Shown here in pieces: positions 1 through 10,414 of a DNA stretch of 34,456 nt. Position numbers and translations under genes: made by a program. The first letter of the stretch is position 1. Every line of letters starts with the position of its first letter. Below the pieces are notes generated by a model, which searched no databases, was not told the origin of the DNA, and saw nothing but the letters and a program-made list of their open reading frames with translations. Source of the stretch: a virus (Duplodnaviria > Heunggongvirae > Uroviricota > Caudoviricetes); IMG/VR virus record IMGVR_UViG_2609460219_000012. One strand, 5' to 3'.

Positions 1-1332
1 CGTGCCACGGCCTTTCGCCGGATTCAGCAACTGGACGAGGCAATGGTTGTTGCCTGCCGTGAAGGTGAACATGCACTGATGCATCTGATACCGGCACAAC
101 AACGAACTGTGGAACACCTGGACGCCATGCAGTGGATCAACGGCGACGGTTATCTGCATAACGTCTTTGTACGCTGGTTTAACGGTGATGTGATCCGCCC
201 GAAAACATGGTTCTGGCAGGATGTGAAAACCCGAAAAATTCTGGGCTGGCGCTGCGATGTGAGCGAGAACATTGATTCAATTCGCCTCTCGTTCATGGAT
301 GTTGTGACTCGCTACGGTATCCCGGAGGATTTTCACATCACCATTGATAACACCCGTGGTGCTGCGAATAAATGGCTGACGGGAGGCGCGCCCAATCGCT
401 ACCGCTTTAAGGTGAAAGAAGACGATCCAAAGGGGTTGTTTTTACTGATGGGTGCGAAAATGCACTGGACAAGCGTTGTTGCCGGTAAAGGCTGGGGCCA
501 GGCAAAACCTGTTGAACGTGCTTTCGGTGTTGGTGGGCTTGAGGAATACGTTGATAAACATCCGGCACTGGCTGGCGCATATACGGGGCCTAATCCGCAG
601 GCAAAACCTGATAACTATGGCGACCGCGCTGTTGATGCAGAGCTGTTTCTGAAAACCCTTGCCGAAGGTGTGGCGATGTTCAATGCCAGAACAGGCCGTG
701 AAACAGAAATGTGCGGGGGCAAACTCTCGTTTGATGATGTTTTCGAGCGTGAATACGCCAGAACGATTGTGCGTAAGCCAACCGAAGAACAAAAACGGAT
801 GCTGTTACTGCCTGCCGAGGCGGTGAACGTTTCACGCAAAGGCGAGTTTACGCTTAAAGTTGGCGGCACCCTTAAAGGCGCGAAAAACGTTTATTACAAC
901 ATGGCATTAATGAATGCCGGCGTGAAAAAAGTTGTGGTCAGGTTTGATCCGCAGCAGCTACACAGCACGGTTTATTGTTACACCCTGGACGGTCGGTTTA
1001 TCTGTGAAGCGGAATGTCTGGCACCTGTTGCATTTAATGATGCAGCGGCAGGCCGTGAATATCGCCGCCGCCAGAAACAACTGAAATCTGCGACGAAAGC
1101 AGCCGTTAAGGCGCAGAAACAAATGGACGCGCTGGAAGTTGCTGAACTGCTGCCGCAGATAGCCGAACCAGCAGCACCAGAATCAAGGGTTGTTGGTATT
1201 TTCCGGCCTTCCGGTAACACGGTGCAGGTGAAATACCAGGAAGCCGATGATGAATATGAAACTGATCGTGATGAATATCTGAATCATTCACTGGATATTC
1301 TGGAACAGAACAGACGTAAAAAAGCCATTTAA
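1..1332 (+). CDS. A: Transposase MuA, C-terminal ~443 codons (5' end truncated by window)
   Basis: Frame is open from base 1 with no stop; ORF track shows 429 aa from an internal Met at 43. Sits immediately upstream of B as in Mu. Confidence 0.85.
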
Positions 1333-1370
1333 TTAACGTTTAAACAAAATTTAATTACGAGGTTATTCAG

Positions 1371-2308
1371 ATGAATATTTCCGATATTCGCGCAGGACTG
1401 CGCACGCTTGTAGAAAATGAAGAAACCACTTTTAAACAAATTGCTCTTGAGAGCGGGCTTTCTACCGGAACTATCAGTAGTTTTATCAATGATAAGTACA
1501 ACGGGGATAACGAGCGTGTTTCACAAATGCTGCAACGCTGGCTGGAAAAATATCATGCAGTTGCAGAACTACCTGAACCGCCCCGCTTTGTGGAAACGCA
1601 GACGGTAAAACAAATCTGGACAAGTATGCGTTTTGCCAGCCTGACTGAAAGTATTGCTGTTGTATGTGGCAATCCTGGTGTGGGCAAAACCGAAGCGGCC
1701 CGTGAATATCGCCGCACCAATAACAATGTCTGGATGATCACCATTACGCCATCCTGTGCCAGCGTTCTGGAATGCCTGACTGAACTGGCGTTTGAGCTGG
1801 GAATGAATGACGCACCACGCCGTAAAGGGCCGCTCTCCCGCGCCCTGCGACGTCGCCTTGAAGGTACACAGGGGCTGGTTATCATCGACGAAGCTGATCA
1901 TCTTGGTGCCGAAGTTCTGGAAGAACTCCGCCTGTTACAGGAATCAACCGCACTGGCCTTGTGCTGATGGGAAATCACCGGGTTTATTCAAATATGACGG
2001 GGGGTAACAGAACGGTTGAATTTGCCCGTCTGTTTTCCCGTATTGCAAAGCGCACTGCAATTAATAAAACCAAAAAAGCCGATGTAAAAGCTATTGCGGA
2101 TGCCTGGCAGATTAACGGCGAAAATGAACTGGAGTTATTACAGCAGATTGCGCAGAAACCAGGTGCGCTTCGCATTCTGAATCATTCACTTCGCCTTGCC
2201 GCCATGACGGCTCACGGTAAAGGTGAGCGTGTTAACGAAGATTATCTGCGTCAGGCTTTCCGTGAATTAGACTTGGACGTTGATATTTCAACGCTGCTGC
2301 GTAATTAA
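1371..2308 (+). CDS. B: Transposition protein MuB (ATP-dependent target DNA activator); frame interrupted near 1945-1967
   Basis: Two consecutive ORFs (1371..1967, 1961..2308) together give the full-length B protein; Walker A-like motif GNPGVGKT; translation matches recalled Mu B. Strong RBS-less spacing after A. Confidence 0.85.
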
Positions 2309-2323
2309 GAAGGAGAAGAAATT

Positions 2324-2551
2324 ATGATGGCCCGAAATATAAAAATGGCAACGGATGCGCAGAACTGGTTACAGGCGCGCGGGAGTCATGTAAATGAATC
2401 ATATCTCGGCGTGGCGCGTCCGATTCTTGAAATCACTTACCCACCGGTGGAACTGGTAAAAAACGCGGTCAGGATTATGGAGCATAAGTCCGGGGTGGCC
2501 CGCTCTGTATGGACGGCCCGTCTTAATGGTTGTCAGATAATCTGGAGGTAG
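2324..2551 (+). CDS. kil: Small early protein, Kil-like by position and size (75 aa)
   Basis: First ORF after B, RBS aaggagaag upstream; position corresponds to Mu kil. Sequence identity not verified. Confidence 0.45.
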
Positions 2552-2558
2552 CATTTAA

Positions 2559-2771
2559 ATGATGGTGATAAACATTCACGATAATCTGGGAATCAGTAAG
2601 TTAATCAACCTTGATAATGTCAATGTAATGGAAACGACTGTTGAGGGCGGTGTTGCTTTTGAATTTATTGATGGTCACAGGCTGGTCGTTCATGTCGGCA
2701 ACCATCATCACGCAGAAAATGTGCTTTGTGAACTTAACAAAATCACAAATGCAACACCCGTTAATCAATAA
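2559..2771 (+). CDS. Hypothetical early protein (70 aa)
   Basis: ORF in Mu semi-essential early region, tightly packed after kil. Confidence 0.45.
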   Translation: MMVINIHDNLGISKLINLDNVNVMETTVEGGVAFEFIDGHRLVVHVGNHHHAENVLCELNKITNATPVNQ

Positions 2772-2782
2772 GGAGAAACAAA

Positions 2783-3046
2783 ATGGCAAAAGTAATTATT
2801 GAAATTAAAAATACAGTATCTGGAATAAAAGGACGGAATTTGCGCACCAGCATTGCGGTGGACGGTAGTGCGGAACTGGACGGTGATGAGGGTACACTTG
2901 CTGGCATGGTGGCGTTACTGGTGCTTAATAAAAGCCAGAAAATAATTAATGAGTCAGCCCATGAAGCCATTGAGATTTTGAAAAACGATGGTGTCATCAC
3001 AGGTGGCAGTGTCACTGAAATGGCTGTTGAAAAAACATGTCACTGA
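2783..3046 (+). CDS. Hypothetical early protein (87 aa)
   Basis: ORF with RBS aaggagaaac upstream; early region. Confidence 0.5.
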   Translation: MAKVIIEIKNTVSGIKGRNLRTSIAVDGSAELDGDEGTLAGMVALLVLNKSQKIINESAHEAIEILKNDGVITGGSVTEMAVEKTCH

Positions 3047-3480
3047 AAGGAACGCTGACAATGAACGTCAAAATCCGAAATGAAATTCAGGCATTAATCC
3101 GAATCCGGGAACGCAATAACAACGGTGGCGAATTACGCGAGTTTATTTGTGTGCGTGAAGTTGATGGTTGTGGTGAAAAGACTTACCTGATTGCTTTCGA
3201 CCATTACAGCATCTGTGCGCGTTATTGCGGCGAAAGCATATCCCGCGCCATTGCATTTGGCGGTGCGTTCAACGTGGATTTATGGGAGTACGTCATGGAC
3301 CGGGAATACATCTGCGCATCAGACCCTGAAGCCCGTGAAATGTGGCAGCGTATCTGGCGCGATTACCGGTTAATGGCAAAAGGCTGGGCGCGCTGCTGTT
3401 ATTCCTCGCTTGCCCTGAAAGCGGTTCAGTTATCGCTGCGGCATATTCCGGCATCACTGCGCGAGCCTCTGCTGTACTGA
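3037..3480 (+). CDS. Hypothetical early protein (147 aa; Met at 3061 is an alternative start)
   Basis: Continuous ORF overlapping previous stop; cysteine-rich; function unknown. Confidence 0.45.
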   Translation: MSLKGTLTMNVKIRNEIQALIRIRERNNNGGELREFICVREVDGCGEKTYLIAFDHYSICARYCGESISRAIAFGGAFNVDLWEYVMDREYICASDPEAREMWQRIWRDYRLMAKGWARCCYSSLALKAVQLSLRHIPASLREPLLY

Positions 3481-3780
3481 ATGGTGACTGACATGAAGTG
3501 TAATCGTAAGCGCTGGTCACGCGAAGACCGGGAATTTATCGAAGCCAACGTCGGGAAAATGACCATTGAAGAAATGGCGGAAAAACTGAAAGTTGCCACA
3601 ACCGCCCTCCGGGCACATGCCAGAAGGCACGGAATATCATTGTGTGTATACCGAATCAGTGAACACGACAAATATTTATGTCGTGAACTTTATAAAGAAG
3701 GACTGGATATTCATGTCATTGCCCGAAAGATGGAATTAAGCAATCGTGCTGTATCCAGCATTGTATACAGCGGATATTAA
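3481..3780 (+). CDS. Hypothetical early protein with helix-turn-helix-like segment (99 aa)
   Basis: ORF; segment MTIEEMAEKLKVATTALRAHARRHGI resembles an HTH. Start overlaps previous stop (ATGA). Confidence 0.45.
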   Translation: MVTDMKCNRKRWSREDREFIEANVGKMTIEEMAEKLKVATTALRAHARRHGISLCVYRISEHDKYLCRELYKEGLDIHVIARKMELSNRAVSSIVYSGY

Positions 3781-3799
3781 TTAACAGGAGCTTTAATTT

Positions 3800-4324
3800 A
3801 TGGCTAAACCAGCAAAACGTATCAAAAGTGCCGCAGCGGCTTATGTGCCACAAAACCGCGATGCGGTGATTACCGATATTAAACGCATCGGGGATTTACA
3901 GCGCGAAGCATCACGTCTGGAAACGGAAATGAATGATGCCATCGCGGAAATTACGGAAAAATTTGCAGCCCGGATTGCACCGATTAAAACCGATATTGAA
4001 ACCCTTTCAAAAGGCGTTCANGGATGGTGTGAAGCGAACCGTGACGAACTGACGAACGGCGGAAAGGTGAAGACGGCAAACCTGGTAACCGGTGATGTGT
4101 CATGGCGTCAGCGCCCACCATCGGTAAGTATTCGCGGCGTGGATGCGGTGATGGAAACGCTGGAGCGTCTTGGCCTGCAACGCTTTATTCGCACGAAGCA
4201 GGAAATCAACAAGGAAGCGATTTTACTGGAACCGAAAGCGGTCGCAGGCGTTGCCGGAATTACAGTTAAATCAGGCATTGAGGATTTTTCTATTATTCCA
4301 TTTGAACAGGAAGCCGGTATTTAA
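3800..4324 (+). CDS. gam: Gam, host-nuclease inhibitor (Ku-like DNA-end binding protein), 174 aa
   Basis: 174-aa ORF whose translation matches recalled Mu Gam (MAKPAKRIKSAAAAYVPQNRDAV...); RBS aggag upstream. Confidence 0.8.
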   Translation: MAKPAKRIKSAAAAYVPQNRDAVITDIKRIGDLQREASRLETEMNDAIAEITEKFAARIAPIKTDIETLSKGVXGWCEANRDELTNGGKVKTANLVTGDVSWRQRPPSVSIRGVDAVMETLERLGLQRFIRTKQEINKEAILLEPKAVAGVAGITVKSGIEDFSIIPFEQEAGI

Positions 4325-4422
4325 TACCACCATTAATATTTAATTAATTCACATTCTTTTAATTATGGCGTGATACGTCAGGAGATTGCTCGCGCCTGAA
4401 ACAGATTACTGAGGAATAAAAC

Positions 4423-4953
4423 ATGGTTGATGCAAAAATTCTGAATGGTGTCAGCACATTATTACGGGCTTACGGACGCCTGACCTGCGGAGTTCTGGCT
4501 GAAAAAATGAATATGCTGCCCTCGTCAATGGTGTATTTCCTGCGTGATGCGGTTGATGCCGGAGTGCTCACCGAATGCAACGGATTTTATGACGTTCCGC
4601 GCCCGCGTCCGACGCCGCCTGTAAGACGAAACGCAACTGAGCAGCCTGCTGTTGATGATGCGGTGTGGTGCAACTGGCGTCGCTCATTACCCTGGGTGGA
4701 AGGTAATACCATCCCCGCGCTGGCAAAAGAGTTTGCGACGGGCGTGCTGACCTGTGAATCCGTTCACATCGTTGCAGAAGTGGACAACAGAATGTACGAA
4801 CAGGGTATGCCCCGTTTTGTGATGGCTTATATCGATATCCGGCTGGGGCGTTTTATTTGCAGTTCAAGCGCCTGGAATATCACCGACCATGTACTGCGTT
4901 ATCTCATTCTTGATTGTTCTCCGGTTCCCGCAGCGGTGCAGGAGGTGGCGTGA
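4423..4953 (+). CDS. Hypothetical early protein (176 aa)
   Basis: ORF with RBS gaggaa upstream; no recognisable motif. Confidence 0.45.
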   Translation: MVDAKILNGVSTLLRAYGRLTCGVLAEKMNMLPSSMVYFLRDAVDAGVLTECNGFYDVPRPRPTPPVRRNATEQPAVDDAVWCNWRRSLPWVEGNTIPALAKEFATGVLTCESVHIVAEVDNRMYEQGMPRFVMAYIDIRLGRFICSSSAWNITDHVLRYLILDCSPVPAAVQEVA

Positions 4954-5483
4954 TGTTTTTTAAAACGTCAAATTCCGCAGCACTGCTGGCATGGGACCAG
5001 TTTATGGCGGACTGCCTGAAACTACGCGAAGAAGCCCGCCATCTTGATAAGGTTCTGGGCTGTGGTTGCCGGTCAGTATTCAGCACAGGTATTGGTGGGC
5101 GTCATTTTCATGGCGTGAATTTTCCGGGGAATGAGCGCCCCTTCTCGCGGGAGCTGTGGACCGTACAACGGCCCGCATCAGGTAACAGTTGCAGGCCCAG
5201 AACTTCGCGGATACCTGCTCATCTCAGGGAGCAGGCAAGAGAGCTGGCGAAAATATGGCAGGAGAATATTCCGGTCACTTACGCCCGCACAGACGCTCTT
5301 TTACCCGCACTGGGACTGGATTTCAGCGCAACAATATTCGGCCCGCTCCGGTGGTTCCGTGTTGGTGATGTGATTTACGTCATGATGGGGATGACGCCCG
5401 CACAAGGCCGCATGACTGAAATCCNTTCTGACGAATTTATCCGGGCGCAAAAACAGGCGGAGGTAAACAATGGAAAACAATGA
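4953..5483 (+). CDS. Hypothetical early protein (176 aa from Met at 4953)
   Basis: ORF track frame 4914..5483; Met at 4953 overlaps previous stop (ATGA) and follows RBS ggaggtgg. Contains one ambiguous base. Confidence 0.4.
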   Translation: MFFKTSNSAALLAWDQFMADCLKLREEARHLDKVLGCGCRSVFSTGIGGRHFHGVNFPGNERPFSRELWTVQRPASGNSCRPRTSRIPAHLREQARELAKIWQENIPVTYARTDALLPALGLDFSATIFGPLRWFRVGDVIYVMMGMTPAQGRMTEIXSDEFIRAQKQAEVNNGKQ

Positions 5484-5652
5484 AACATCGTATTCGTGGC
5501 TGGGGACATTTACCACTGTGAAGCAGGAATGTCCGACCTGCGGTAATGAAAACCCTGAATATCTGAAAGAGTGCCCTCATTGTGGTGGGCAGAAATGCAA
5601 CCACTGCGATATGGGCGATGACACGGCGTGCATGAATTGTGAAGGTGAATAA
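5470..5652 (+). CDS. Small zinc-ribbon protein with four CxxC motifs (60 aa)
   Basis: CPTC, CPHC, CNHC, CMNC motifs in a 60-aa ORF; RBS ggagg upstream. Confidence 0.5.
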   Translation: MENNETSYSWLGTFTTVKQECPTCGNENPEYLKECPHCGGQKCNHCDMGDDTACMNCEGE

Positions 5653-5714
5653 TATGAATAATGAAACTAAAACATTATTTTCCATAAAATCCACTCTGAT
5701 TGATGTGTAAATTC

Positions 5715-5740
5715 AGGCGGTGTTGCAGCACCGCCTCTTT
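5715..5740 (+). terminator. GC-rich hairpin (AGGCGGTG / CACCGCCT) followed by CTTT, inside the early operon upstream of gemA
   Basis: 8-bp perfect stem with 6-nt loop read directly from sequence; short T tract only. Confidence 0.3.
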
Positions 5741-5754
5741 CCGGAGGTACGATC

Positions 5755-6306
5755 ATGAGTCGCACATCCCTGATTAAATTAATCCATGTCGCCCGTCGGG
5801 AGCTACAACTCGACGACGACACTTACCGCGCTTTTCTGATGCAGAAAACGGACAAAATCAGTTGCCGCGAGCTGACGGTCACGCAACTGGAACAGGTGCT
5901 CGATGCCATGAAAGAACGCGGCTTTAAGAAGCAGAATAAACACCCACGCCGACGCTTTAAGGAACATGTCACGCCCCGCGAGAAGGTGTACAAAGTCTGG
6001 CAGCAGATGGCAGAAGACGGGTTTATTACCGACGGCAGTGATGTGGCGCTGGACAGATACGTTCAACGCCTGACGGCGAAACGCAACGGTGGACAGGGTG
6101 TTTCCACACTGGCGTGGTGTCATGGCGACACGCTGCTGACAGTCCTCGAAACACTCAAACAGTGGCACATCCGCTGTATTCGTGAAGCCTTTTCCCGTCA
6201 CGGGCTTCCGTTGCCGGTCAGTCCGTCCGGGCGTGAACTGCGCGGCTATGATGCCATGACGGCGGCTTATGCCCATGCCAGAAAGACACGGAGGATGGCA
6301 CAATGA
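5755..6306 (+). CDS. gemA: GemA-like early protein (183 aa)
   Basis: Position immediately upstream of mor with overlapping stop/start, as for Mu gemA; RBS ggaggt upstream. Confidence 0.6.
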   Translation: MSRTSLIKLIHVARRELQLDDDTYRAFLMQKTDKISCRELTVTQLEQVLDAMKERGFKKQNKHPRRRFKEHVTPREKVYKVWQQMAEDGFITDGSDVALDRYVQRLTAKRNGGQGVSTLAWCHGDTLLTVLETLKQWHIRCIREAFSRHGLPLPVSPSGRELRGYDAMTAAYAHARKTRRMAQ

Positions 6307-6692
6307 CGGAAGATTTATTTGGTGATTTGCAGGATGACACCATCCTGGCACATCTTGACAATCCCGCAGAGGATACGTCACGCTTTCCGGCACTGCTGGC
6401 GGAGCTGAACGATTTACTACGCGGGGAATTGTCCCGGCTGGGTGTTGATCCTGCCCATTCACTGGAGATTGTTGTGGCTATCTGTAAGCATCTGGGCGGC
6501 GGTCAGGTCTACATTCCACGCGGTCAGGTTCTGGACTCGCTGATTCGGGATTTGCGTATCTGGAATGATTTTAACGGTCGCAACGTCAGCGAACTGACCA
6601 CCCGTTATGGTGTCACTTTCAATACGGTTTACAAGGCCATTCGCCGGATGCGACGGCTGAAATACCGCCAGTACCAGNCCTCACTTCTGTAA
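6303..6692 (+). CDS. mor: Mor, middle operon regulator (transcription activator), 129 aa
   Basis: 129-aa ORF; translation matches recalled Mu Mor; paralogous to C downstream (shared YIP.G....L.RD....NG.N motif). Confidence 0.8.
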   Translation: MTEDLFGDLQDDTILAHLDNPAEDTSRFPALLAELNDLLRGELSRLGVDPAHSLEIVVAICKHLGGGQVYIPRGQVLDSLIRDLRIWNDFNGRNVSELTTRYGVTFNTVYKAIRRMRRLKYRQYQXSLL

Positions 6693-6697
6693 ACAGT

Positions 6698-6722
6698 AAA
6701 GCCGGTTAATCCGGCTTTTTTT
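6698..6722 (+). terminator. Perfect dyad AAAGCCGG-ttaat-CCGGCTTT followed by T7 tract; rho-independent terminator of early transcript, possibly doubling as Mor-binding dyad of middle promoter Pm
   Basis: Hairpin and T run read directly, 6 bp after the mor stop. Pm assignment is from knowledge that the Mor-dependent middle promoter lies between mor and the C operon. Confidence 0.6.
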
Positions 6723-6769
6723 ACGTCCTCAATATCCTGTGATGAATAACCGTACCGGGGGAAATCATC

Positions 6770-6988
6770 ATGGGTAAAGGCTGGAATGCATCCTTTCATC
6801 TTGGCAGACGTGAGCGGCTGCGTCAGGAGGTTTTGCACCGTGTCGCCGGTGGGCCACGGCCTGCGCCCCGCGACTATACCGGTCATGATGGCACCCACGG
6901 CAGTTATTACATGAAAGGCTGGCAGTCAGTTGATATGCCGGAAATTCTTCATCATTGCCTGCTTTACAGGGAGAAACATTATGTCTGA
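6770..6988 (+). CDS. Hypothetical middle-operon protein (72 aa)
   Basis: ORF preceded by RBS ggggga; first gene after the terminator/Pm region. Confidence 0.45.
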   Translation: MGKGWNASFHLGRRERLRQEVLHRVAGGPRPAPRDYTGHDGTHGSYYMKGWQSVDMPEILHHCLLYREKHYV

Positions 6989-7343
6989 GCGTTCTGCTCG
7001 TCAGTGGCCTGATTTTTTATCGGTGGTGTTACTGGCGCTGTTATTGTGGATAAGTCTGTTTTGTGGCTGGCGCGCGCTGATGTTTTGCTGTGCCTCGGTT
7101 TTCAGTGTTGCTTTATGTGTTGCCGGTGATTGTCTGGATGCGCTGATAATGAGCTGCCGGGTGCCTGAACATTTTGCCCGGTTCGTCTGGCCGCTGACCT
7201 GGCTGGGGAGTCTGTCCGGGCTGGGATTAGCCGTGATGGCAACGTCTCAACTGAAAACGGGTCCTGAGCATGTCATCTGGGCGATGGCCGGATTGCTGAC
7301 GTTCTGGCTCTCCTTTCGTTTTCGCGCTCGTCTGTTCGGGTAA
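6981..7343 (+). CDS. Hypothetical membrane protein (120 aa from Met at 6981)
   Basis: Several hydrophobic segments; RBS agggag before Met at 6981; ORF track frame begins 6930. Confidence 0.5.
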   Translation: MSERSARQWPDFLSVVLLALLLWISLFCGWRALMFCCASVFSVALCVAGDCLDALIMSCRVPEHFARFVWPLTWLGSLSGLGLAVMATSQLKTGPEHVIWAMAGLLTFWLSFRFRARLFG

Positions 7344-7352
7344 AGGGGCACC

Positions 7353-7472
7353 ATGTACAGAAAATTCAGTGATGAATGTTTCGGGCCGTCCACGCTGATG
7401 AGTGCGATAAAAGTGATTGNCCTTGTGGTTCTGATAACCATCAGTGCCGTGGTGTATCTTTCTGTCTGTTAA
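7353..7472 (+). CDS. Candidate small hydrophobic peptide (39 aa), below ORF-track size cut-off
   Basis: ATG at 7353 after aaagggg; translation MYRKFSDECFGPSTLMSAIKVIxLVVLITISAVVYLSVC has one predicted transmembrane helix; fills the gap before C. Confidence 0.35.
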   Translation: MYRKFSDECFGPSTLMSAIKVIXLVVLITISAVVYLSVC

Positions 7473-7484
7473 CCGGGGGAAAAT

Positions 7485-7907
7485 ATGCAGCATGATTTAT
7501 TTGAACACGATCCGGCAATTCGCCAGTTAATCGGACATATTAATAACATTCCGGCCCCGGAACTGGAATCACGCTGGCCCCGTTCGGTGGTTGATCTGAT
7601 TGATGTTCTGGAAAACGAACTGAAACGCCAGAACGTCAGCAATCCCCGTGAGCTTGCCCGTAAACAGGCCGTTGCCCTGTCCTGTTTTCTGGGCGGACGG
7701 CAGTTTTACATCCCCTGCGGCGATACGATCCTGACCGCGTTACGCGACGATTTGCTTTACTGCCAGTTCAATGGTCGTAACATGGAAGAACTGCGTCGCC
7801 AGTATCGCCTGTCCCAGCCGCAGATCTACCAGATTATTGCCCGCCAGAGAAAGCTGCATACACGACGTCATCAGCCTGATCTGTTCTCACCTGAAAGCCA
7901 GAAATAA
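7485..7907 (+). CDS. C: C, late gene transcription activator, 140 aa
   Basis: 140-aa ORF matching recalled Mu C; paralogous to Mor; RBS gggggaaaat upstream. Confidence 0.8.
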   Translation: MQHDLFEHDPAIRQLIGHINNIPAPELESRWPRSVVDLIDVLENELKRQNVSNPRELARKQAVALSCFLGGRQFYIPCGDTILTALRDDLLYCQFNGRNMEELRRQYRLSQPQIYQIIARQRKLHTRRHQPDLFSPESQK

Positions 7908-7930
7908 CCGGCATCCTGCCGGTTATTTCC
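7904..7930 (+). terminator. Hairpin ATAACCGGCA-tcc-TGCCGGTTAT after C (end of middle transcript); weak U tract
   Basis: 10-bp perfect stem read directly, overlapping the C stop codon. Confidence 0.5.
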
Positions 7931-7998
7931 TGTCACCATAATCCCGCACCTGCCATCTGATTTTTTAGACTGCCATCAGAGCATTTTTTCAGGGAAGC

Positions 7999-8517
7999 AT
8001 GATGGCGGGGATACCAAAAAAACTGAAAGCCGCACTGCTGGCGGCAACGATTGCCGGTGGCGGTGTGGGTGGTTATCAGGAAATGACCCGTCAGTCTCTG
8101 ATCCATCTGGAAAATATCGCTTATATGCCTTACCGCGATATTGCCGGTGTGCTTACGGTCTGTGTGGGACATACCGGGCCGGATATCGAAATGCGCCGTT
8201 ACAGCCATGCGGAGTGTATGGCTCTCCTCGACAGTGATTTAAAACCGGTTTATGCGGCAATCGTTCGTCTTGTCAGGGTGCCGCTGACGCCATATCAGAA
8301 AACGGCGCTGGCAACGTTTATTTTCAACACCGGTGTTACCGCATTCAGTAAATCAACGCTGCTGAAAAAACTCAATGCCGGTGATTACGCCGGAGCGCGT
8401 GACCAGATGGCCCGCTGGGTGTTTGCCGCAGGCCATAAATGGAAAGGACTGATGAACCGTCGCGAAGTGGAAATGGCTATCTGGAATATCAGGGGGGCGG
8501 ATGACCTTCGCCAGTAA
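7999..8517 (+). CDS. lys: Endolysin (lysozyme) with Gly/Ala-rich N-terminal signal-anchor-release-like segment, 172 aa
   Basis: Matches recalled Mu Lys; N-terminal KLKAALLAATIAGGGVGGY is weakly hydrophobic; first gene after C as in Mu. Confidence 0.75.
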   Translation: MMAGIPKKLKAALLAATIAGGGVGGYQEMTRQSLIHLENIAYMPYRDIAGVLTVCVGHTGPDIEMRRYSHAECMALLDSDLKPVYAAIVRLVRVPLTPYQKTALATFIFNTGVTAFSKSTLLKKLNAGDYAGARDQMARWVFAAGHKWKGLMNRREVEMAIWNIRGADDLRQ

Positions 8518-8788
8518 AAGTTTACTGCTGGCAGCCGTGTTTGCCGCCGTTCTGTCCGGGGTGTTGTGGCACAGGCTGGACAGCACCCGCCACGATAACC
8601 AGACGCTGCGCCGTGAATTACAGACGGAGCAACAGGCCCGCAACACGGCTGAATGGTTGTTACACAGTCAGGAACAGACGATGCAGGTATTTTCCGCTAT
8701 CCGTGCCGCAAATCGTGCCGCACGGCTGGCAGATGAGACAGAACATCATGATGCAAAACNAAAAAATTACAACCGCCATTACCGGTGA
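8501..8788 (+). CDS. i-spanin-like protein (N-terminal TM helix plus coiled coil), 95 aa
   Basis: TM segment LLLAAVFAAVLSGVLW then charged/Q-rich region; overlaps lys stop. Confidence 0.55.
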   Translation: MTFASKSLLLAAVFAAVLSGVLWHRLDSTRHDNQTLRRELQTEQQARNTAEWLLHSQEQTMQVFSAIRAANRAARLADETEHHDAKXKNYNRHYR

Positions 8789-9090
8789 CAATTGCAGCAC
8801 TCGTCCTGTGCCTGCCGTTGCTGCTGACAGGTTGCGGGAACTCGAAAAACGCACCCGTGCCATCGGTGGTGATCCTGCCCGAAACTGATGCAGAACTGAC
8901 GGAAGCAACGCCCGTTCCGCCCATGCCACAGCCCCTGACGTGGGGAGCATCCCTTCTCTGGAATGCTGACCTGTTGATGGCGCTCGGGCAGTGCAACCGC
9001 GACAAGGCATCAGTCCGGGAACAGGAGACCCGGAGGAAAGAAATTTATGAACGAAGACCAGAACCGGGCGGTGGCGCTGCTGCTCGCTGA
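8785..9090 (+). CDS. o-spanin-like outer-membrane lipoprotein, 101 aa (GTG start)
   Basis: Signal peptide with lipobox LLTGC, proline-rich mature part; GTG overlaps i-spanin stop. Confidence 0.55.
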   Translation: MTIAALVLCLPLLLTGCGNSKNAPVPSVVILPETDAELTEATPVPPMPQPLTWGASLLWNADLLMALGQCNRDKASVREQETRRKEIYERRPEPGGGAAAR

Positions 9091-9241
9091 ACTCTGGCAG
9101 GGGGATACCCGTGATATTCCCCGCCCGGCGGCGTATGACCTGCCTGTATTGTGTGCCGGTTGCGGTCGTGAGCTGCGGCCTGATGTGCTGAGACAGCAGC
9201 CGATGGCGAACTACTGNCACTGGTGCCGTGGAGCAGAATAA
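9047..9241 (+). CDS. Hypothetical small protein (64 aa) with CxxC motif
   Basis: ORF only; overlaps neighbours; contains one ambiguous base. Confidence 0.35.
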   Translation: MNEDQNRAVALLLAELWQGDTRDIPRPAAYDLPVLCAGCGRELRPDVLRQQPMANYXHWCRGAE

Positions 9242-9540
9242 TGGATTTGATTTCAGTTTTAGCGTTATGGCCTTACCTGTTGCCTGTTGTGGCCGGTGGG
9301 GCCGTCTGGGCAATGCGTCGTAGTTTTGCCAGCACTGAGCGTGTGGAGCGTCTTGAAAACCGGATGACCGAAATGGAAACCCGCTACGCCAGCATCCCTG
9401 GCACAGAAGATGTACACGAAATGCGCCTGCGAATTGCAGAGCTGTCCGGCGATATCCGGGTGCTGTCCCAGCGGGTGCAGTCATTTTCCCATCAACTGGA
9501 GCTGCTGCTTGAAAACGCAGTAAACCGGAGTAATTCATGA
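9241..9540 (+). CDS. Membrane protein with one TM helix and coiled-coil tail (99 aa from Met at 9241)
   Basis: Hydrophobic N-terminus LISVLALWPYLLPVVAGGAVWA followed by heptad-like region; Met at 9241 overlaps previous stop. Confidence 0.5.
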   Translation: MDLISVLALWPYLLPVVAGGAVWAMRRSFASTERVERLENRMTEMETRYASIPGTEDVHEMRLRIAELSGDIRVLSQRVQSFSHQLELLLENAVNRSNS

Positions 9541-9827
9541 TTAACGATATTCTGACCGAAGACCGTCGTCTGGTCATCTTGCGTTCCCTGATGGACTGCA
9601 ATAACGAAGCAAACGAGTCCATCCTTCAGGACTGTCTGGATGCATACGGACACAACGTTTCCCGCGATGTGGTTCGCGGCCAGATTGACTGGCTGGCAGA
9701 GCAGCAACTGGTCACCGTGGAAAACCTGCGCGGCTTTTATGTCGTAACGCTGACCTCCCGTGGTCAGGATGTGGCAGAAGGTCGTGCCCGCGTTACCGGT
9801 GTCAAGCGTCCTCGTCCCCGTGCATGA
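9537..9827 (+). CDS. Hypothetical protein (96 aa)
   Basis: ORF with overlapping stop/start coupling to neighbours. Confidence 0.5.
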   Translation: MINDILTEDRRLVILRSLMDCNNEANESILQDCLDAYGHNVSRDVVRGQIDWLAEQQLVTVENLRGFYVVTLTSRGQDVAEGRARVTGVKRPRPRA

Positions 9828-10414
9828 CAGGAGGCGTGATGGACAGGAAAACACGGGGCCGGGCTTCAAAAGTGGATTTACTGCCAGAAAACGTACGTAA
9901 AACGCTGCATGAAATGCTGCGTGATAAAGCGATCCCACAGGCCCGCATTCTGGAAGAAATTAACGCACTGATTGAAGACGCTGGCCTGCCGGATGAGATG
10001 AAACTCTCCCGTTCCGGTCTGAACCGTTACGCGACGAACGTCGAACAGGTAGGCCATAACCTGCGACAGATGCGTGAAATGACGTCAGCACTGACCGCAG
10101 AACTTGGCGACAAGCCAATGGGAGAAACCACAAAGCTGATTCTGGAAATGGCCCGCAGCCAGCTTTTTAAGGCCATGATGCGGCAAATCGAAAACCCGGA
10201 ATCTGACGTGGATATTGACCTGCTGAAAAATGCCATGCTGGCGGCACAGCGTCTGGAATCCACGGCAATGTCCAGCCACCGGCGCGAGAAAGAAATCCGC
10301 CAGGCATTCGCAGAAGAAGCGGCAAACGCCGTCAGTGAAGAACTGCGCGGGCAGGATGGTATCAGCGAAGAACTGGAGCAGCGTATCCGTGATGTGTTGC
10401 TGGGTAAAGCGTAG
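9824..10414 (+). CDS. Terminase small-subunit-like DNA-binding protein (Mu gp27-like; possibly gene D), 196 aa
   Basis: Position directly before the large terminase region; basic N-terminus. Assignment by synteny with Mu. Confidence 0.5.
   Translation: MTGGVMDRKTRGRASKVDLLPENVRKTLHEMLRDKAIPQARILEEINALIEDAGLPDEMKLSRSGLNRYATNVEQVGHNLRQMREMTSALTAELGDKPMGETTKLILEMARSQLFKAMMRQIENPESDVDIDLLKNAMLAAQRLESTAMSSHRREKEIRQAFAEEAANAVSEELRGQDGISEELEQRIRDVLLGKA

Follow-up and report, generated by a model that had tools for sequence, protein, structure and literature searches.

Background

Small membrane proteins such as MgrB, AcrZ and MgtS are about 30-50 amino acids (aa) long, consist of a single transmembrane helix without any enzymatic domain, and are dispensable in the laboratory. 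The usual mechanism of these bacterial regulators is the binding of a larger membrane protein. Phages also encode small membrane proteins close to their endolysin genes, e.g. the holin/antiholin pairs S105/S107 of lambda and S68/S71 of phage 21.

In phage Mu only four coding sequences have a predicted transmembrane domain, namely genes 19, 20, 23 and 25 (Chamblee et al. 2022, PMC9239132). Genes 19 and 20 are described by these authors as middle genes. According to the same paper, Samanta et al. 2021 proposed that gp19 and gp20 form a holin-antiholin pair, while Mathee & Howe 1993 are cited there for the observation that both genes can be inactivated and are dispensable. Induction of gene 19, gene 20 or both, followed by the addition of DNP, did not impair viability, in contrast to lambda S105 and phage 21 S68, which kill the cell under such conditions; according to the authors, Mu lacks a holin and relies on the releasin gp25 together with a SAR endolysin (PMC9239132).

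In this study we analysed a short open reading frame (ORF) placed directly upstream of the gene for the late activator C in a Mu-type phage genome, and compared it with the systems mentioned above. All coordinates without further qualification refer to the window, i.e. the whole stretch of 34,456 nucleotides that was analysed; L numbers are our handles for the other sequences.

The window and its middle operon

The window represents a Mu-type phage genome extending from inside the transposase gene A through mom. Its region 6900-7950 shares 98.5-98.6% identity with Mu and D108. Mu coordinates exceed those of the window by 1987 at its first base and by 2478 at gene 20 (window 1-7353 versus Mu 1988-9831). 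Approximately 490 bp of the early (semi-essential) region of Mu must therefore be missing from the window, at some point within the interval from about 3000 to 7353. Scattered over the window are 17 isolated ambiguous bases (4021, 5425, 6678, 7420, 8760, 9217, 11241, 17384, 18922, 20633, 21113, 24062, 24888, 27134, 33544, 33981 and 34225). One of them, at 6678, introduces an X near the C-terminus of Mor, and another falls within the ORF under study.

The features of the region are as follows (the position of Pm was carried over by homology and is putative):

6303..6692, + strand: mor, middle operon activator (Pfam Mor match, E 9.5e-33; equivalent to Mu_17)
6685..6755, + strand: Pm, putative Mor-activated middle promoter, mapped from the Mu annotation (AF083977, Pm 9163-9233, offset 2478)
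6698-6718, inside Pm: terminator-like site, early-transcript terminator hairpin (AF083977, terminator 9179-9200)
6770..6988, + strand: gene 18 (E18), first ORF of the middle operon (Mu_18; phrog_2121)
6981..7343, + strand: gene 19 (E19), 120 aa, 4 transmembrane segments (Mu_19; phrog_4975)
7342..7348, + strand: aaagggg, Shine-Dalgarno-like sequence before gene 20
7353..7472, + strand: ORF assigned to gene 20 (Mup20/gp20), 39 codons, TAA at 7470-7472
7353-7412, + strand: gene 20 codons 1-20, N-terminal segment with a conserved motif, probably cytoplasmic
7413-7469, + strand: gene 20 codons 21-39, transmembrane helix
7420, + strand: ambiguous base, position 1 of codon 23 (NCC; GCC, Ala, in relatives)
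7475..7481, + strand: GGGGGAA, Shine-Dalgarno sequence of C (ribosome-binding site annotated here in Mu)
7485..7907, + strand: C, late transcription activator, last gene of the middle operon (Pfam Mor family, E 9.3e-34; equivalent to Mu_21)

Identification of the ORF and properties of its product

The ORF was pointed out in a preliminary description of this DNA, and its basic features were found as given there: an ATG at 7353-7355, 39 sense codons, a TAA at 7470-7472, and an aaagggg ribosome-binding sequence at 7342-7348, whose GGGG ends 4 nt ahead of the ATG. The gap of roughly 140 bp said to harbour it measures 141 bp, between the stop of gene 19 (7343) and the start of C (7485).

Comparison with known sequences indicates that this ORF very probably corresponds to gene 20 of phage Mu and is translated into a membrane peptide. 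In the Mu genome record AF083977, Mu_20 (AAF01097.1) is annotated as "transmembrane domain-containing protein gp20", with its own ribosome-binding site, and is surrounded by gene 19, C, Pm and Plys. The same gene is Mup20 in NC_000929 (NP_050624.1), gene 20 in D108 and SfMu_20 in SfMu. An older record of the Mu left end (M64097.1) contains no gene 20 on the + strand and shows two putative antisense ORFs instead. The preliminary claim of a small membrane peptide just upstream of C is thus upheld by the comparative evidence, but the ORF does not fill an annotation gap, since it is the annotated Mu gene 20. As the gene is already annotated and partly tested, the finding is an ordinary one.

A tblastn search found gp20 at 90-100% identity in all 14 matching Muvirus records. 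The window's gp20 is 95% identical to Mu gp20, which has the same length, the same predicted single transmembrane segment and the same slot between gene 19 and C, 97% identical to that of D108, and 100% identical to the homologues from Yersinia vB_YpM phages. It differs from Mu gp20 in having Met16/Ser17 in place of Ile16/Asn17, an allelic difference only, plus the one ambiguous base. The peptide matches phrog_19823 (E 1.8e-29, residues 1-39 of 39), placed by PHROG in the category of unknown function, while comparison with Pfam, NCBIfam and PADLOC gave no meaningful match.

The product encoded in the window is MYRKFSDECFGPSTLMSAIKVIXLVVLITISAVVYLSVC. The X at residue 23 results from the ambiguous base at 7420. 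It had been considered that this base might hide a stop codon, which is impossible, since NCC can encode only Thr, Pro, Ala or Ser; codon 23 is GCC (Ala) in Mu, D108 and every Mu-type relative recovered. Residues 21-39 constitute the most hydrophobic 19-residue stretch (mean Kyte-Doolittle value 2.77), and AlphaFold2, run on a shallow alignment of 7 sequences, modelled a single helix covering residues 6-38, with block-mean pLDDT values of 96 (residues 21-30) and 92 (residues 31-39). Both hydropathy and this model agree with the single, strongly hydrophobic helix described previously. The charges are located on the N-terminal side of the helix (+3/-2), with none on the C-terminal side, and the annotated topology is N-in C-out. 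With its helix occupying residues 21-39 of 39, i.e. the extreme C-terminus, gp20 has the architecture of a tail-anchored protein; its relatives contain 0-1 residues beyond the helix, except for the L007 class (see below).

Distribution of gene 20

Gene 20 was found in 44 out of 5426 complete Escherichia coli genomes, in classes that include sequences of approximately 92% and, in E. coli SE11, approximately 67% DNA identity. An exhaustive HMM search of 1.84 billion representative proteins yielded only seven clusters (defined at 50% identity), five of which are distinct forms of the peptide (Mu type, SE11 type, P0009, P0010 and P0011), the other two (P0004 and P0008) being frameshifted or chimeric versions of the Mu-type peptide. 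Scans of viral and metagenome sequences with the gp20 alignment recovered the Mu and SE11 types only, and no relative was confirmed when a species-representative genome collection was scanned with C and with gp20. The gp20 family is tiny, and it is restricted to enterobacterial Mu-like prophages.

All recovered gene 20 loci reside in Mu-like prophages, and in each of them gene 20 is placed directly 5' of a C homologue. The order of genes is gemA - mor - (GH108 muramidase) - gene 18 - (gene 19) - gene 20 - C - lysozyme, where brackets mark genes that are not always present. Gene 18 of this operon shares 85% amino-acid identity with its SE11-type homologue (dN/dS 0.05). More distant relatives, whose C-type activator is 60-74% identical, do not contain gene 20. 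In six such IMG/VR sequences (L031-L034, L036 and L037) we found no ORF at the mor position between gemA and the activator; the interval either carries unrelated cargo, such as an ORF of 150 aa with a hydrophobic N-terminus in L031, or is devoid of long ORFs.

One divergent Mu-type allele deserves separate mention. It occurs in six E. coli genomes (H67-H72; L007/L012, with the gene at 1999-2140 of L007), starts with GTG and has a 2-nt deletion near its 3' end. As a result, the last 5 residues, YLSVC, are replaced by a 12-residue tail, SFCLLTGGKYAA, with the helix retained, and the stop codon is shifted so that it overlaps the start of C (ATGCAGCATGA). No gene 20 is called by PGAP in the L007/L012 genomes.

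Coding capacity and selection

When the 141-nt gap was shuffled by mononucleotides, about 1% of the resulting sequences contained a complete ORF of 39 codons or more that begins with ATG. This frequency is, by itself, suggestive; it is the conservation evidence, added to it, that makes the case for a real ORF convincing. Conservation of the frame in related phages had been named as a check on the ORF, and the frame is indeed kept: together with its start, stop and Shine-Dalgarno sequence, it is retained in five lineages at a synonymous divergence of approximately 50-60%. The start codon is ATG or GTG, and it is preceded by its own Shine-Dalgarno sequence in three different upstream contexts: (i) AAAGGGGCACC-ATG in Mu, (ii) GGAGGCAT[A/G]-ATG in four lineages, and (iii) the gene 19 initiation region, in cases where gene 19 has been deleted. 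At the protein level, conservation concerns the N-terminal motif M-Y-[RK]-[KR]-[FI]-[ST]-[DNE]-E-[CY], Leu15, Lys20 and the 19-residue hydrophobic C-terminus.

Of the six possible frames, only that of gene 20 (+0) is open in all seven sequences compared. It also has the lowest pooled pN/pS, 0.51 versus 0.61-1.21 in the other frames, a statistic that comes from seven sequences of five lineages whose synonymous sites are near saturation. The values range between 0.21 and 0.73 over all pairs, and those obtained when the Mu type is compared (0.45-0.73) are only moderately below 1; for the least saturated pair, SE11 versus L075, pS is 0.52 and pN 0.11. Variability at codon positions 1, 2 and 3 equals 0.36, 0.27 and 0.48, respectively. 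Judged from these sequence comparisons, gene 20 is a genuine protein-coding gene under purifying selection.

The presence of antisense ORFs in M64097.1 (E-64 and F-60) raises the question of whether the true gene is one of these, or lies in the + frame 7376..7495, which is open in the window (39 codons) and overlaps both gene 20 and the start of C. Six of the 7 sequences keep one antisense frame open, and its pN/pS is 0.61. The third codon positions of this frame, however, coincide with those of gene 20, and a stop can arise in it only opposite Tyr, His or Gln codons in certain contexts; reasoning from the sequence, it would stay open automatically because it lies opposite a hydrophobic peptide. 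The length and ends of the antisense ORF also vary widely (64, 189 and 159 aa), and all annotated Mu genes of the region read rightward. As for the + frame 7376..7495, Mu interrupts it with TAA and D108 with TAG, and stops are present in all seven sequences over the span of gene 20. The probability that the gene resides in any of these frames is negligible. The antisense ORFs seen in the window (7227-7493 and 7247-7441, - strand) match E-64 and F-60, and we regard them as shadow frames.

It is also very improbable that we are dealing with a chance frame in a non-coding spacer, or with a region conserved as an RNA or DNA element. The shuffles show that such an ORF can occasionally arise by chance. 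Moreover, only three differences, each of them non-synonymous, separate the Mu and SE11 types within the first ~32 nt, and this segment could form an ATTCA-GNRA-TGAAT hairpin. Nevertheless, neither idea accommodates the retention of frame, start, stop and Shine-Dalgarno sequence at the synonymous divergence given above, and a chance ORF is excluded by this conservation. The hairpin is disrupted in L074, L075 and L077, in which synonymous changes occur, and the fold energy of the region is unremarkable (z = -0.74). The hairpin (~7366-7379) was for these reasons dropped as a candidate element.

Relation of gene 20 to the C gene

Between the stop codon of gene 20, ending at 7472, and the ATG of C (7485) there are 12 nt, the first 2 of which separate the stop from the C Shine-Dalgarno sequence. 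In other lineages the distance to the C start is usually 10-14 nt, with an overlap in the L007 class. The layout is the same in all lineages, and in each of them C has its own strong Shine-Dalgarno sequence. Gene 20 resembles translationally coupled upstream ORFs as a general class in that its stop is found 12 nt before the next start and 2 nt before the corresponding Shine-Dalgarno sequence; it is unlike them in the purifying selection that acts on its peptide and in the strength of the Shine-Dalgarno sequence that C possesses.

This arrangement invites the interpretation that the ORF is purely a leader, whose translation opens the C ribosome-binding site while the peptide itself is functionless. 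The constant proximity of the stop to the C start, including its overlap in the L007 class, agrees with such a role, as does the frameshift tolerated by the gp20 C-terminus in that class. Folding predictions place most of the C Shine-Dalgarno sequence in base pairs with the 3' end of gene 20 (unpaired probability 0.15-0.40). Furthermore, overexpression of C has been reported to be lethal (10.1101/2025.01.04.631326), so the dosage of C plausibly matters. A functionless peptide, however, would not be expected to conserve its N-terminal motif, Lys20 and hydrophobic helix over synonymous changes, or to show a pN/pS below 1 that is lowest in its own frame. That C possesses a strong Shine-Dalgarno sequence in every lineage also speaks against a pure leader, and the fold energies of the seven sequences are unremarkable (z-scores from -1.2 to +0.2), with pairing partners that are not conserved. 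Finally, the relatives with a C-type activator mentioned above have no such ORF. Since the peptide itself is constrained, a pure leader role appears unlikely. Masking of the C ribosome-binding site by the gene 20 3' end was predicted to no greater extent than in shuffled sequence, and this idea was set aside.

A related proposal is that gene 20 and C constitute a conserved functional unit, in which the peptide or its translation sets the amount or timing of C, acting either by coupling or by the retention of a factor at the membrane. Such a unit would explain why gene 20 is kept beside C while gene 19 is lost and the upstream cargo varies, but we consider it rather improbable. The reading that we prefer for gene 20 remains that of a translated membrane peptide constrained in its own right.

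Loss of gene 19 and variability of the middle operon

Gene 19 is absent from SfMu, five Yersinia vB_YpM phages, PhiR68_1, many IMG/VR contigs and L074. The SfMu-type deletion is exact, running from the start codon of gene 19 to the start codon of gene 20, and a junction of the same kind is present in L074; in L077 gene 19 is reduced to an internally deleted remnant (3907-4001). As a consequence of the exact deletion, gene 20 comes to follow the initiation region of gene 19 and is overlapped by the end of gene 18 (..VQKIQ*). In all lineages in which gene 19 is missing or broken, i.e. in three different settings, gene 20 is intact.

The ends of the SfMu-type deletion and of that in L074 share CACC/ATGT microhomology (L003-L006, ~1450-1520; L074, 1150-1200). 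In SE11-type phages the N-terminus of gp19 (MFKRFC...) resembles that of gp20 (MYRRFS...), as seen in L008 (2127-2145 versus 2507-2525) and L075 (3621 versus 4001). This likeness may reflect an old partial duplication, or may be a short homology that mediates the loss of gene 19.

Other parts of the operon are variable as well. In all lineages that are not of the Mu type, a gene for a GH108 muramidase with a PG_binding_3 domain opens the middle operon, between mor and gene 18 (L008, 1363-1923; L072, 1551-2111; L073, 1857-2417; L074, 414-974; L075, 2812-3408; L077, 3143-3703); Mu and the window do not contain it. In these relatives C is followed by a shorter lysozyme and then directly by a DUF2730 (gp25-like) gene, and genes 23, 23.1 and 24 (spanins and gene 24) are not called between the two.

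These observations bear on the proposal that gp20 and gp19 form a holin-antiholin pair controlling the timing of Mu lysis. Both are membrane proteins encoded near the endolysin gene, and the operon of SE11-type relatives additionally carries the GH108 muramidase. Against this stands the lack of lethality after induction of gene 19, gene 20 or both and the addition of DNP (PMC9239132), together with the persistence of gene 20 in the three settings without an intact gene 19. If gene 19 can be lost while gene 20 stays, gp19 and gp20 are not an obligate pair. Nor is gene 20 expressed as a late gene together with the endolysin, since it belongs to the middle transcript from Pm and precedes both C and the C-dependent promoter Plys. 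Thus, although gp20 is similar to the lambda and phage 21 proteins in its small size, membrane location and proximity to an endolysin gene, it differs from holins in being the product of a middle rather than a late gene, in being non-lethal after DNP and in being dispensable for lysis (PMC9239132). We consider a holin-antiholin function of the pair highly improbable. Toxicity on expression had been suggested as a check on the preliminary description, and the published result is negative for gp20 alone or with gp19, even after DNP (PMC9239132); the host-targeting or timing role envisaged in that description is unsupported.

Proposed role of gp20

The best-supported reading is that gp20 is a non-essential, tail-anchored, single-pass inner-membrane peptide of the middle phase. 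Gene 20 would share the Mor-dependent middle transcript initiated at Pm with genes 18, 19 and C, and would be translated from its own Shine-Dalgarno sequence. In tail-anchored proteins the helix at the C-terminus of the chain is still within the ribosome tunnel at termination. Since the helix of gp20 forms the C-terminus of a 39-residue chain, it cannot emerge before termination, and insertion of the peptide would have to be post-translational, probably via YidC or unassisted. Residues 1-20 probably face the cytoplasm, and this conserved, charged N-terminal segment is likely to be the functional surface of gp20.

By analogy with the small bacterial regulators introduced above, gp20 may act by binding and modulating a larger membrane protein; this is the likeliest mode of action, although we put it forward tentatively. 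It resembles MgrB, AcrZ and MgtS in its size, single helix and dispensability, a comparison that concerns the mode of action and not membership of a family. It has no sequence relationship to them (no Pfam or NCBIfam match), and, unlike them, it comes from a phage and is produced only during the middle phase of lytic growth. A host protein is a more likely partner than gp19, given that lineages which have lost gene 19 still keep gene 20. A secondary effect, compatible with such a role, is also probable: ribosomes terminating on gene 20 would keep the C ribosome-binding site unfolded or would re-initiate, and in this way translation of gene 20 may help that of C.

The discovery value of this ORF is small, as it represents an annotated gene of a very well-studied phage, and published tests have excluded the candidate role of this gene in lysis. 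Gene 20 is nevertheless under purifying selection, is constantly adjacent to C and outlasts gene 19. It therefore constitutes a reasonable small target for studies of phage small membrane proteins and of the dosing of C.
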